Assembly: GCF_050320075.1 (NCBI RefSeq)
Contig: NZ_CP190025.1
Length of the DNA stretch: 5,772 bases
From: Escherichia coli
GTDB taxonomy: Bacteria; Pseudomonadota; Gammaproteobacteria; Enterobacterales; Enterobacteriaceae
Strand: one strand, 5' to 3'
Both the position numbers and the translations under genes were made by a program. Below the pieces are notes generated by a model. The model worked only from the letters and a program-made list of their open reading frames with translations. It was not told where the DNA came from and did not search any database. Positions within the stretch are counted from its first letter, which is position 1. Each line of letters begins with the position of its first letter. Shown one piece after another: positions 1,670 to 4,164 of the stretch.

Positions 1670-1794
1670 TGAACGCGTTTTAGCGGTGCGTACAATATTG
1701 TCGTTATGTTAAATGGTTTGGATGATCCCCCCATTTTCCACATTTGGTTGTGACGATTAAGATAAACTCGTCAGAATATTTGGGTGAGGAATAA

Positions 1795-2943
1795 TCATAA
1801 TATGATGGCTAGGAAGCATATTCCAATACCTATGAGCAGGTTCAACGTCATCATTATTTTTCTAAAAATACTGTTACAATTTGTTTTTAAAAAGAATGCT
1901 GATGGGATAATGAATACTGTTATTGCTATAATTGGGGTTGATAATGCAGCAATAACTTTTATAATTTCGAAATTGGCTTCGCCTGCTATAAATGTGATAA
2001 CAGATACGACAAAAACGATTAATGTTTTGTTTTTAAATCCAAGGGATACTATTGTATCAACAACGCCTGTTAGTGTACCTGTATATGCACCGCTGGTAAT
2101 TAAAATCATGGTTAATATGGAAATGTAAGCAACGAAACTATTTTTTGTTACGTTGGCGCTATATGATAATGCATCGCTGTTAATCTCGCGCATGTTTTTT
2201 ATGTCTGAAGGTGAGAATATATTGCTTAATGAGAACACGATGAATGAGATAAATATTAAAATTAATAGTATCCCAAACATGAAAAAACGTAAATCACCGG
2301 CTGTATCTTTTTTGTTTTGAGCAAAGCGTTGTATACATGGTGAAAAATTAAAACTAAATAAAACAACTGGAAATAGAGTAAGTAAATTACTTGTACTAAT
2401 ATTTTGTATTTCTGTAGAATGTGGATGTGCTGGATGTGAATAGAAATATATAGATAAGAACAGTACAATAAGCAAAGATGGAAATGCTATTCCTGATGCG
2501 AGATGCTCTATCTTTGAATTAAAAAAGATAAAAGAAGAACCAAGGGTTGCAGAAATAATCAGTGACACAAATATTCGCTCTGAACCATTTAGACTTAGGC
2601 TAAAGCAAATAATATTTATCATTGTTGTTATGTTTATAATTGCTATTAACAGCATTGATAATAGGAATGCAATACTGATAGCATTTGCGGCTTTTTTTCC
2701 GATAAATAATATGGCAGAACTAACGTATTCTTTTTTGTCTGTAATTAAAATGAATCTATAAAATGTAAATTGCCCTAATAAAGATACCAAAGATGATAAA
2801 ATCAGTATTGTTATTGTTCCGTGAGTTCCTATGACTTTGGGGCCTACAGTCTGGGGTAGGAAAAAAATCCCTGCCCCAAATGATGTTGCAAAGAATGTTA
2901 CTGGCCATTGGATGCTATTTATCTTCATTTTTGAACCTTTCAT
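1795..2943 (-). CDS. HAAAP-family (hydroxy/aromatic amino acid permease; SdaC/TdcC/TnaB/Mtr/TyrP-like) membrane transporter
   Basis: Highly hydrophobic multi-TM ORF. N-terminal motif SFGAGIFFLP and central motif FSFNFSP match HAAAP signatures recalled from SdaC (GTAIGAGVLFLP ... FSFNHSP). Start chosen at the ATG 2943..2941, which overlaps the upstream stop as ATGA. In-frame alternatives are 2979 (ORF-track start), 2952 and 2928; the last is preceded by AAAGG. Very AT-rich. Confidence 0.85.
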   Translation of the reverse strand: MKGSKMKINSIQWPVTFFATSFGAGIFFLPQTVGPKVIGTHGTITILILSSLVSLLGQFTFYRFILITDKKEYVSSAILFIGKKAANAISIAFLLSMLLIAIINITTMINIICFSLSLNGSERIFVSLIISATLGSSFIFFNSKIEHLASGIAFPSLLIVLFLSIYFYSHPAHPHSTEIQNISTSNLLTLFPVVLFSFNFSPCIQRFAQNKKDTAGDLRFFMFGILLILIFISFIVFSLSNIFSPSDIKNMREINSDALSYSANVTKNSFVAYISILTMILITSGAYTGTLTGVVDTIVSLGFKNKTLIVFVVSVITFIAGEANFEIIKVIAALSTPIIAITVFIIPSAFFLKTNCNSIFRKIMMTLNLLIGIGICFLAIIL

Positions 2944-3830
2944 TTGAAGCATGATGTTCCAAAGAAAATAAGTAAACATGGAAGATTAAAATTACTATAA
3001 AAAGATGCTGCTGCTTTATAGCCATTAATTACATTAGCCATTGAGCACAATGGGAATACACCTATGTGTGATGTGTAATTGTCAAATGTCTTGTTCGATG
3101 AAATTTTATATCGAATCGAGCGAAATGTAGCTGCGTTACCTGCTGCACAAGTCGGTTTGTTATTTTTTATCACTTCAAATGATGAACCATCGACATTCAT
3201 AAAAACAGAGTTGTTTTCTTTAAAAAATGGCTTTTCTTTTTCTTTTCTTTTAATGTGTCGTTTAAAACGATCTGCCATGTTTTTTTCACTAACATAGAAA
3301 CAATTTATTTTTATATTATGCTGATTCTGTTTCTCTATAATATAGTTATTTATTACTTCTGGTATTATATAGGGTGATGTGGCTAGTTTTCTATAAATAT
3401 TACCACCATCGATATCTTCGCCATTTGATTTTTCCATGTAGAAATCATTTATTTCCATGAGGAAATCAGGTTTTATATTTAGCTCATGTGTTGATTTTAT
3501 TATGTAGTCAATGCAAAATTTAGCCGATTTTTCAACCTCATTACTAACTGAAAAACGGTCATTCAAATTCACAACAGTATGTCCACCAGATATAATAATC
3601 TTGTCTGATGTGTATTTTTCGGCTAGTTTTATTACAGTATCTATGTTGTCATCTGATATTTCTGTGTTTATTATCTCATCGATTCCTGTGCAATCTGCTT
3701 TGTATACAACAAATCTGTCTTCTTTTTTCCAGTCTTTTGTACAATTACATTTATAGCCCTCGTATATTGCTCTTTTGTTTTTTTTATAAAAATCTGGACT
3801 TTGTAAGGGCATTATTTCTAGGTCTGGCAT
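2940..3830 (-). CDS. Hypothetical 296-aa soluble, Lys/Asn/Ile-rich protein of unknown function (first gene of the cargo operon)
   Basis: Uninterrupted 296-codon ORF in an AT-rich region; ATG at 3830 preceded by AAGGAAG 7 nt upstream; stop TGA overlaps the start of the downstream permease. No family signature recognised by eye. Confidence 0.75.
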   Translation of the reverse strand: MPDLEIMPLQSPDFYKKNKRAIYEGYKCNCTKDWKKEDRFVVYKADCTGIDEIINTEISDDNIDTVIKLAEKYTSDKIIISGGHTVVNLNDRFSVSNEVEKSAKFCIDYIIKSTHELNIKPDFLMEINDFYMEKSNGEDIDGGNIYRKLATSPYIIPEVINNYIIEKQNQHNIKINCFYVSEKNMADRFKRHIKRKEKEKPFFKENNSVFMNVDGSSFEVIKNNKPTCAAGNAATFRSIRYKISSNKTFDNYTSHIGVFPLCSMANVINGYKAAASFYSNFNLPCLLIFFGTSCFK

Positions 3831-4006
3831 AGTTATGCTTCCTTTGTCACAAAGAAAATATTTTGCTAATTATGACTTATACATATCAATGATAGAGATC
3901 ATGTTAGTGTTTGATCATTGATGTCTCCTTTATTTATGTGATGCGTCTCTATTTTTTCTCTTATAGTGTCTTGGATGTTATTTGTTAAATATGTATTGTT
4001 TTTTGT
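3831..4006. promoter_or_regulatory. AT-rich divergent intergenic region, presumed to hold promoters for the minus-strand cargo operon and the plus-strand tRNA
   Basis: 176-bp AT-rich spacer between divergent genes; contains TTGATA and TATAAG-like hexamers on the minus strand, a TTGGAT hexamer on the plus strand, and a short inverted repeat CAATGAT...ATCATTG (3887..3920). Exact promoter elements not resolved. Confidence 0.35.
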
Positions 4007-4095
4007 GGAGAGGTGGGCGAGTGGTCTAAGTCAGGGCTCTCTTGAGGCCATATGCGACAAGCGTATCGTAGGTTCGAATCCTACCCTCTCCGCCA
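4007..4095 (+). tRNA. Type-II (long variable arm) tRNA with encoded CCA; Ser-like body (acceptor stem GGAGAGG, discriminator G), anticodon in canonical register CUU; isotype undetermined
   Basis: Hand-folded cloverleaf. Acceptor stem 4007..4013 / 4085..4091 (7 bp, perfect). D-stem 4016..4018 / 4030..4032 with an 11-nt D-loop containing GG. Anticodon arm 4034..4050 (4 bp plus a G.A mismatch; loop CTCTTGA with U33). Variable arm stem-loop 4051..4065 (5 bp, 5-nt loop). T-stem 4068..4072 / 4080..4084 with T-loop TTCGAAT. G4092, then CCA 4093..4095. Confidence 0.85.
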
Positions 4096-4164
4096 TTTTG
4101 TTGATCGTTTCCCCCACCATTTGTTGAATTGAGAGGGGTTTTGAAAAAAGATCAAAGGATCCTC

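Follow-up and report, generated by a model that had tools for sequence, protein, structure and literature searches.

The window analyzed here, the whole 5,772-nucleotide stretch of contig NZ_CP190025.1 (assembly GCF_050320075.1) from Escherichia coli, contains a ColE1-type backbone interrupted by an AT-rich cargo island of 2430 bp (1715..4144, no strand assigned) that is delimited by its composition and by alignment to loci L022, L023 and L024. The mob, cer, ori and rop elements that the original prediction placed in the backbone are all present: a cer XerC/XerD core site (1685..1714, plus strand) matches the ColE1 cer core pattern with one mismatch (shuffles matching, 0/200), RNAI (4205-4310, minus strand) scores 66.6 bits in Rfam, and Rop, MobC, MbeB and MbeD are annotated in an identical RefSeq record. 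The left junction of the island coincides with the last base of the cer core (1714/1715), and its right end (4144/4145) lies about 20 nt before the RNAII promoter. For sister ColE1 plasmids belonging to this replicon cluster, the alignment extends to window position 1714 and resumes at 4145 or 4157. Between identical junctions, sisters that share the backbone contain DUF1508 or DUF3800 cargo instead. The segment indeed occupies the ColE1 cargo position, flanked by cer on one side and the RNAII/RNAI origin on the other, in a mob+ rop+ backbone. Because homology fixes the boundaries independently, the interval 1715-4140 proposed originally is essentially exact.

The GC content of the island is 0.323, compared with 0.546 for the backbone (3342 bp), as anticipated for an AT-rich segment of about 2.4 kb in a GC-balanced plasmid. 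The sliding GC profile falls from 0.51-0.59 to 0.27-0.36 from about 1700 to 4000, and the originally delineated interval has a GC content of 0.324 against 0.533 and 0.558 in its two flanks. GC3 is likewise set apart, at 0.25-0.26 for the two island genes and 0.46-0.69 for the backbone genes, and the predicted excess of AAA, AAT, ATA and TTT codons is evident in the counts for the two island genes (AAA 43, AAG 5, ATA 49, TTT 39). The island is thus a real, discrete and foreign cargo in a variable slot. It occurs in 21 of 5426 complete E. coli genomes, on a plasmid every time, and a variant on a mouse plasmid is about 94% identical to the present copy. In every Enterobacterales host, the homologous module has a GC content of 0.28-0.38 against flanks of 0.47-0.60; in low-GC hosts, e.g., on a Cetobacterium plasmid and in a Lentisphaerae MAG, its GC content roughly equals that of the surroundings. 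A low-GC origin of the module, as originally suggested, is therefore plausible. The accompanying claim that the acquisition was recent finds no support, given that protein divergence among the Enterobacterales copies reaches about 35% while they remain AT-rich; no donor lineage was found. The expectation of a colicin, microcin or restriction-modification cargo fails: PADLOC, Pfam and NCBIfam searches detect no colicin, microcin, restriction-modification or defense genes in the island.

The original prediction overlooked the principal feature of the island, a tRNA-like gene together with a synthetase-fold enzyme. The enzyme (2940..3830, minus strand, 296 aa) is a stand-alone protein with the Rossmann-type fold of the catalytic domain of class I aminoacyl-tRNA synthetases. 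It consists of this single domain and lacks an anticodon-binding domain with the attendant anticodon recognition. Conservation of the family extends across phyla, and its roughly 30 invariant residues include H84 (within ISGGHTV), N128-D129, R147, C262 and C294. The canonical HIGH and KMSKS motifs are absent from the enzyme; the nearest equivalents are ISGGH, which directly follows the first core strand, and the C-terminal FGKSCF, the lysine of which is not invariant and is replaced by T in the enzyme of the present plasmid. An hhalign comparison with E. coli CysRS and ArgRS detects nothing (probability below 1%), and searches of Pfam (with a single sequence and with 33 members), NCBIfam, PADLOC and PDB (phmmer and profile) are all empty. 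Neither the sequence nor the fold of the cyclodipeptide synthases is recognizable, and the unremarkable pI is uninformative with regard to RNA binding. The family is very rare, with 57 representatives at E <= 0.001 among 1.84 billion, and searches of the full-text literature, including by protein accession, found no description of it. We read this protein as a pared-down catalytic domain of the class I synthetase type, with putative aminoacyl chemistry.

The second protein-coding gene of the island (1795..2928, minus strand) encodes a distant member of the HAAAP Ser/Thr-type transporters, 377 aa long from the annotated ATG, although the open frame extends to 2979. Its similarity to TIGR00814, "serine/threonine transporter", spans the full length (E 1.4e-23), with a score of 83.7 bits that is far below the curated cut-off of 525.8; Pfam gives no match. 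The transporter gene starts 11 nt downstream of the enzyme gene, and because of this short gap the two probably form one operon. Homologs of this transporter, named "threonine/serine transporter" in RefSeq, adjoin the enzyme gene in L010 (40% identity) and L013 (78%). More generally, a transporter gene directly follows the enzyme gene in the Enterobacterales loci, in L003 and L017 and in the remote L149, and belongs to the same cluster in L007 and L058. The families involved are HAAAP, EamA, MFS and, in a remote relative, SSF; import is the usual direction for HAAAP and SSF transporters. Among the protein partners of the enzyme, the best conserved is an MBL-fold hydrolase, which accompanies it in most lineages and yet is absent from the present plasmid. 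The closest solved relatives of this hydrolase are uncharacterized structural-genomics proteins, with weak matches to RNase Z, Apyc1 and lactonase-type enzymes.

The third component is an RNA gene of 89 nt with an encoded CCA (4007..4095, plus strand), which is labeled "tRNA-Lys(CUU)" both in RefSeq and by ARAGORN and scores 46.2 bits against the Rfam tRNA model. The defining features of tRNA-Lys are A73 and a short variable loop. The present RNA does not have this type I body: it combines the acceptor stem GGAGAGG/CCUCUCC, which is of the SerRS type, with G73 and a long variable arm, so that the CUU triplet alone fits tRNA-Lys. It aligns collinearly with E. coli serU tRNA-Ser(CGA), with which it shares 6/7 acceptor pairs, G73, the CCA end and the long variable arm, and its 3' half is identical to that of ordinary metagenomic tRNA-Ser genes. 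Judged by its sequence, the RNA is a derivative of tRNA-Ser with a type II body. The family model R1 finds 15 copies of this RNA. Across 14 distinct copies, the pairing holds in 98.9% of cells, and the D and variable stems show compensatory changes. The observed score is not attained by any shuffle, and slid registers are only 39-53% paired. In soil metagenomes, there is a second odd family of tRNA-Ser-like RNAs, with no conserved neighbor gene.

Among the relatives of this RNA, the acceptor, D, variable and T arms are kept and the anticodon arm varies freely. In the present RNA, this arm consists of a weak 5-bp stem with a G27.A43 mismatch and a 7-nt loop, CUCUUGA, which presents CUU in place of a serine anticodon, and the minimum-energy fold does not form a standard anticodon arm. 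The RNA of L003 has 5 bp and a 6-nt loop, and in most Enterobacterales the arm is a hairpin of 11-13 bp with covarying stems and a loop of 4-5 nt; where triplets can be read in relatives, they are UCA, AAC or AGU, and the ARAGORN assignments within the family differ accordingly (Lys, SeC, Val, Thr or "???"). Given that the anticodon arm is free to vary, the RNA is most likely not used by the ribosome, and the "tRNA-Lys(CUU)" of the plasmid is probably non-decoding. The retained identity features suggest that recognition by seryl-tRNA synthetase is preserved.

The AT-rich region between the RNA gene and the enzyme gene (3831..4006, no strand, GC 0.27) presumably contains, by its geometry, the promoters of the RNA gene and of the enzyme-transporter operon. 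A scan of this region for the promoter consensus yields no signal above chance; by eye, a weak TTGGAT-17-TATTGT is discernible at 3971-3999, 7 nt upstream of the 5' end of the RNA. This divergent layout, with a spacing of about 190 bp, is found in L010, L015, L018, L025 and L026. A backbone hairpin followed by a T-run (4154..4176, plus strand; a terminator-like site in the scan on both strands) lies just outside the island, where it overlaps the start of the RNAII promoter region, and is a possible terminator of the RNA transcript.

No more than about 200 bp separate the RNA gene from the enzyme gene in E. coli, Rahnella, Edwardsiella, Enterobacter, Salmonella and further lineages; in a Lentisphaerae MAG, the distance is at most 3 kb. 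Conversely, a scan with the RNA pattern identifies this RNA subtype in 6 loci, all of which (6/6) contain the enzyme gene. In about 9 of 22 enzyme lineages, namely the alphaproteobacterial clade, the Cetobacterium plasmid, Pectobacterium and L013, no tRNA-like gene is detectable within 5-6 kb even with the search filters off, so that the RNA is not obligatory in cis. In the remote locus L149, serS shares an operon with a homolog of the enzyme; this link was discarded as a single case that does not recur in four other remote contexts, where radical SAM genes are frequent neighbors.

Taken together, these observations are compatible with a mobile enzyme/RNA pair that carries out non-ribosomal aminoacyl chemistry on a non-decoding tRNA-Ser scaffold, a reading that we consider evenly poised between right and wrong. 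The RNA would keep the parts needed for folding and for chemistry at the CCA end; the host SerRS would recognize it and charge serine onto it, and we infer that the enzyme acts on its acceptor (CCA) end. The enzyme might either itself load an amino acid onto the RNA or use ATP to transform or extend the serine loaded by SerRS, similarly to the tRNA-dependent conversion of amino acids (Sec, Cys, Gln, Asn) or to MshC-type ligation. The amino acid-type transporter, probably co-transcribed with the enzyme, would then import the substrate or export the product. The MBL-fold hydrolase is a fourth component in most of the other lineages, with a presumed role in product release or processing; the present plasmid clade has lost it. 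The trio looks like a portable kit for non-ribosomal, tRNA-based chemistry. On this reading, the island as a whole would be a cargo module, obtained by horizontal transfer and complete in itself, with the enzyme/RNA pair at its core.

Among the alternatives, the enzyme could be a tRNA-independent ligase of the MshC/BshC type that couples a small molecule to cysteine or a different amino acid, with the RNA being a roleless relic, e.g., of integration into a tRNA-Ser gene. This explanation appears improbable, given that the RNA is complete with its CCA, has its structure kept by compensatory changes and occupies a fixed position across genera, that the enzyme gene is present in all 6 loci with this RNA subtype in the RNA-pattern scan, and that useless DNA is unlikely to persist in a plasmid cargo of 2.4 kb. 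The GT4 and PIG-L neighbors that would suit such an enzyme are confined to L004 and are not conserved in sister loci; a mycothiol-like pathway was set aside for the same reason.

It is rather unlikely that the RNA is a genuine AAG-decoding tRNA, which would either supply codons or, with the mini-synthetase, form an orthogonal pair inserting serine or an unusual amino acid. Both automated annotations, the regular CUCUUGA loop with U33 and a purine at 37, which is identical in the mouse-plasmid variant, and the regular loop reading UCA in the RNA of L058 are compatible with decoding. However, the tRNA-Ser-type body, the G.A mismatch and the minimum-energy fold, as well as the variation of the anticodon arm in length and sequence across the family, all argue against it, and a Ser-charged reader of CUU type on a multicopy plasmid would be expected to mistranslate the whole proteome. 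The role of a codon-supply tRNA for the island genes was rejected because these genes barely use AAG (5, compared with 43 AAA). The least likely explanation, which we regard as very improbable, is ordinary accessory DNA, i.e., a permease and a hypothetical enzyme for nutrient uptake or hitch-hiking xenogeneic genes: cryptic cargo is frequent on small ColE1 plasmids, the RefSeq labels are "hypothetical protein" and "amino acid permease", and transporters of these families generally import, but neither ORF is disrupted, the conservation of the enzyme spans phyla, and the association of enzyme, transporter and RNA repeats on unrelated replicons (ColE1, Rep3, IncF and chromosomes).

The preferred reading, an enzyme/RNA pair for chemistry outside translation, can be extended to a more specific and doubtful proposal, namely that the module assembles a small molecule derived from an amino acid at the CCA end of a tRNA-Ser disabled for this purpose and passes it through the linked transporter, as an RNA-templated "amino-acid microcin" or antimetabolite. 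The determinants of amino acid-type microcins are located on small multicopy E. coli plasmids. The module could be the never-cloned basis of such historical microcins, e.g., Mcc15m and Mcc93m (PMC6795089, PMC12162799); another possibility is that it provides an orthogonal mini-aaRS/tRNA pair ready for use.

The trio of a tRNA-Ser-derived RNA, a synthetase-fold enzyme and a transporter is without description in the literature searched, and we know of no earlier case of a mobile element with its own non-decoding tRNA and a minimal class I-fold enzyme. Should the pair work as proposed, it would combine substrate and enzyme in one portable unit for tRNA-dependent chemistry that lies outside translation. 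The systematic mis-annotation of "tRNA-Lys" on E. coli plasmids would be corrected, a new, very rare protein family would be defined, and there would be a hint as to how small a synthetase-type enzyme can be and yet recognize a tRNA acceptor arm. The pair would further be a compact candidate orthogonal pair for synthetic biology, and plasmid-borne antagonism through small molecules in gut E. coli would gain a candidate that can be tested.

With the cargo of the ColE1 family (colicins, microcins, restriction-modification systems and small cryptic genes), the island shares the slot between cer and the RNAII promoter; unlike typical cargo of this kind, it lacks a colicin, lysis, immunity, microcin-precursor or restriction-modification gene. 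The closest known systems for the enzyme are the catalytic domains of class I aminoacyl-tRNA synthetases (ArgRS, CysRS and MetRS) and their truncated paralogs, e.g., GluQRS/YadB. The enzyme differs from these in the lack of detectable sequence similarity and of the canonical signature motifs, in its size of only 296 aa, in a partner RNA without a conserved anticodon, and in the location of its gene on mobile elements beside a transporter and an MBL-fold hydrolase. The MshC/BshC cysteine ligases are also class I synthetase-fold enzymes, which acylate a small molecule without the use of tRNA; in contrast, a dedicated tRNA-like RNA is linked to the present enzyme gene and the GT4/PIG-L context is not conserved.

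Among systems related on the RNA side are the special-tRNA conversions (Ser-tRNASec to Sec and Sep-tRNACys to Cys; the identity of tRNASec is described in PMC9976931) and the non-proteinogenic tRNAs, such as the staphylococcal tRNA-Gly for peptidoglycan. Compared with the tRNASec and Sep systems, the module has no SelA, SelB, PSTK or SepCysS homolog, and its RNA has the normal 7/5 acceptor/T geometry and a variable or much elongated anticodon arm with no fixed codon. As in the tRNASec-type systems, the SerRS-type body with its long variable arm and G73 would be a scaffold kept from decoding. The aminoacyl-tRNA-dependent biosynthetic enzymes, namely cyclodipeptide synthases, the IleRS-like SbzA, AcmF, PEARLs and VlmA with seryl-tRNA (reviewed in PMC12945691), are enzymes of the synthetase fold or of other kinds that have in common the use of a charged tRNA as the aminoacyl donor outside translation, and the cyclodipeptide synthases, like the enzyme of the island, are small stand-alone class I-like domains.

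The window comprises an entire ColE1-type plasmid of 5772 bp and is 100% identical to the E. coli plasmid pSM107_2 (NZ_CP130671.1). The original prediction of a sharp AT-rich island in the cargo slot of this ColE1-type replicon holds: in a sliding-window profile, the GC content changes from 0.51-0.59 to 0.27-0.36 across positions ~1700 to ~4000, and the overall values are 0.323 for the island versus 0.546 for the backbone. The anticipated AT-type codon bias is evident as well, with a GC3 of 0.25-0.26 in the island genes versus 0.46-0.69 in the backbone genes, 43 AAA and 5 AAG codons, and abundant ATA and TTT. 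When sister plasmids from this replicon cluster are aligned with the window, the left junction falls at 1714/1715 and the right one at 4144/4145, or at 4156/4157 in one of them, in agreement with the proposed span of 1715-4140. The cer XerCD core, at 1685-1714, differs from the ColE1 core by one mismatch (0 of 200 shuffles match), and its final base is the last backbone base before the island. RNAI is located at 4205-4310 on the minus strand, so that the RNAII promoter begins a few tens of bases past the island end. The same junctions in sister plasmids flank other cargo, DUF1508 or DUF3800, in support of the predicted slot between the cer core and the RNAII promoter. That this junction immediately follows the cer core and is common to plasmids with different cargo suggests that ColE1 plasmids swap cargo via Xer recombination at cer. 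The backbone also contains a relaxase-like ORF of 486 aa (48-1508) in the MbeA position, with a GTG start and overlapping mbeB and mbeD, that is missing from the PLSDB gene table of the identical record; its start may lie across the record origin, or it may have been treated as a pseudogene.

The island encodes, on the minus strand, a 296-aa protein (2940-3830) and a membrane protein (1795-2928 as annotated) that starts 11 nt downstream of the first gene. An 89-nt tRNA gene on the plus strand (4007-4095), divergent from the minus-strand 296-aa ORF, is detected by ARAGORN (Lys, CUU) and Rfam (46 bits). The 296-aa protein has no match in Pfam, NCBIfam, PADLOC or the PDB sequences, and its family is very small: 56 clusters in a collection of 5.8 billion proteins and, of 1.84 billion, 57 representatives at E <= 0.001, some of which form a remote branch that looks partly archaeal. 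The alignment of 33 members contains about 30 invariant positions, and H84, N128-D129, R147, P157, P260, C262, Y278 and C294 are retained even in the remote branch. An AlphaFold2 model built on this alignment (pLDDT 91, pTM 0.90) agrees, in Foldseek comparison, with a class I synthetase-type fold, and the nearest annotated proteins in AFDB, behind a handful of uncharacterised small proteins, are ArgRS, CysRS and GluRS. By the model and these neighbors, the protein is a stand-alone catalytic domain of the class I synthetase type; an anticodon-binding domain is absent. The protein lacks the canonical HIGH and KMSKS motifs; 'ISGGH' directly follows the first core strand, and the family has a C-terminal 'FGKSCF' motif in which T replaces K in the copy from this plasmid. 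A profile comparison of the family with E. coli CysRS and ArgRS yields no signal either. Assignment as an aminoacyl-tRNA synthetase was therefore dropped, and only the synthetase fold is retained.

The RNA aligns collinearly with serU, the tRNA-Ser(CGA) of E. coli. Its acceptor stem reads GGAGAGG where serU has GGAGAGA, and the two molecules have in common G73, the encoded CCA, the D-loop G18G19 and the long variable arm; the anticodon stem of the RNA is weak, with a G27.A43 mismatch, a U.G closing pair and the loop CUCUUGA. On E. coli plasmids, the gene is labeled tRNA-Lys in RefSeq (RNA genes are left out of the PLSDB gene table). Because G73 and the long variable arm make the body one of the tRNA-Ser type, the CUU triplet has very likely led to a wrong label here. 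A covariance model built on the acceptor, D, variable and T arms recovers 15 copies of the RNA with 75-113 bits. Across 14 distinct sequences, 98.9% of the cells pair, with compensatory changes in the D-stem pair 11:26 and two variable-stem pairs; no shuffle reaches this score, and slid registers are only 39-53% paired. The anticodon arm consists of 5 bp and a 7-nt loop in the window (CUU) and in the enzyme locus L058 (UCA), of 5 bp and a 6-nt loop in another such locus, L003, and of a covarying hairpin of 11-13 bp with a 4-5 nt loop in most Enterobacterales. Accordingly, ARAGORN names members of the family Lys, SeC, Val, Thr or '???'. Given such plasticity of this arm, the RNA family probably does not decode a fixed codon.

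The RNA is found near the enzyme gene in 13 of approximately 22 distinct enzyme loci, mostly ~190 bp upstream and divergent. It is adjacent in Rahnella (L010-12), a proteobacterial MAG (L015), Edwardsiella (L018), mouse E. coli plasmids (L024), an Enterobacter IncF plasmid (L025) and, as two tandem copies, a 194-kb Salmonella plasmid (L026); L003 and L058 have it on the strand of the enzyme gene, and in L017, a Lentisphaerae MAG, the distance is ~3 kb. The tandem genes of the Salmonella plasmid, pRSE21, lie at 4560-4662 and 4709-4811, upstream of the enzyme gene, and the second is more diverged (75 bits), with a compensatory A1-U72 pair. The RNA is absent nearby, even with search filters off, in nine loci: the alphaproteobacterial clade, a Cetobacterium Rep3 plasmid, Pectobacterium, L013 and L020. 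The closest non-identical relative, L013 (5866-8044 of a 43-kb conjugative-plasmid-like contig), shows 84% protein identity and ~80% DNA identity over the two genes; the homology stops 8 nt short of where the tRNA-like gene would lie, and unrelated GC-rich DNA follows.

A metagenome scan with the 3' half of the RNA identified 120 loci, most of them ordinary tRNA-Ser genes that have its T arm and acceptor stem and so reveal its ancestry. The D-arm type of the window RNA is present in 6 of the 120, and the enzyme is encoded in all six. About 50 of the scan loci (among L029-L148; e.g., L060, L069, L073 and L085), from soil and rhizosphere, encode another odd tRNA-Ser-like RNA that starts with GGAGAGGTGCGAGAG and has an irregular anticodon arm. 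It has the T arm, acceptor stem, G73 and CCA in common with the window RNA, and adjoins neither a gene of the 296-aa family nor a conserved neighbor gene in these ~50 loci.

The membrane protein is predicted to be a distant HAAAP transporter of the Ser/Thr type: it has no match in a Pfam search and hits TIGR00814 with E 1.4e-23, far under the curated cut-off. Outside the alphaproteobacterial clade, most lineages have a transporter of some family, and the family differs by lineage (HAAAP, EamA or MFS; SSF in one remote relative). In 15 loci, drawn from all clades, the enzyme gene adjoins a gene for an MBL-fold hydrolase; the window, L024 and L013, the members of the E. coli small-plasmid clade, lack it. 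The nearest solved relatives of the hydrolase are uncharacterised, with weak matches of the RNase Z, Apyc1 and lactonase types. Radical SAM genes near the enzyme gene recur in several lineages.

Several loci show distinct variants of the module. L003 contains an inverted duplication (5780-5990, plus; 12560-12800, minus) of the promoter, tRNA-like gene, the hairpin after it and first ~25 enzyme codons; the second copy leads a convergent operon for a 43-aa peptide (a truncated N-terminus), a radical SAM/SPASM enzyme, an MFS transporter and an Asp/Glu racemase. In an alphaproteobacterial MAG (L004, 8923-10786), genes for a radical SAM protein, a GT4 glycosyltransferase and a PIG-L deacetylase come after those for the enzyme and the MBL protein. 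Enzymes of the latter two types, GT4 and PIG-L, take part in making mycothiol and bacillithiol; the gene arrangement is not kept in sister loci. The Pectobacterium parvum chromosome (L002, 5600-8150) carries intact enzyme and MBL genes, no tRNA-like gene and a HAAAP transporter broken into ORFs of 131 and 162 aa, and thus contains a decaying copy. An apparent operon in L149 (3466-11002) encodes an SSF transporter, a remote homolog (~20% identity), unknown proteins of 1192 and 211 aa, and serS. The serS adjacency is not repeated in four other remote-homolog loci, which have radical SAM or B12-binding neighbors and AsnC-type regulators.

The module is AT-rich versus its flanks in all Enterobacterales hosts and near the composition of its surroundings in low-GC hosts, which makes a low-GC origin plausible. 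To this extent the proposed acquisition from a low-GC donor stands, but no donor lineage was identified, and the Enterobacterales copies have diverged to a degree that speaks against one recent transfer. The island is present in 21 of 5426 complete E. coli genomes, every time on a plasmid, and also in Klebsiella.

The foreign island carries an enzyme of synthetase fold and, in tight genetic linkage with it, a structured RNA derived from tRNA-Ser whose anticodon arm is unconstrained; a transporter is encoded alongside. The enzyme would act at the CCA end of the RNA. Either host SerRS would charge the RNA and the enzyme would then modify or extend the seryl group, or the enzyme itself would charge it. 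SerRS recognizes its tRNA by the variable arm, acceptor stem and G73, with no regard to the anticodon. Class II tRNA identity has been reviewed (PMC9976931). We lean slightly toward charging by host SerRS because the variable arm is maintained by compensatory change and yet could hardly be read by a single 296-aa domain. Having its own RNA on board would make the module independent of the host, and the ruined anticodon arm would keep the product out of proteins.

To our knowledge, the known aminoacyl-tRNA-dependent biosynthetic enzymes all use ordinary translational tRNAs, and a full-text literature search, also by protein accession, found no account of a dedicated non-decoding tRNA carried together with a minimal class I-fold enzyme. 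We rate this candidate enzyme/RNA module as belonging to tRNA-dependent, synthetase-like, non-ribosomal chemistry, with a real chance that it represents something more unusual.
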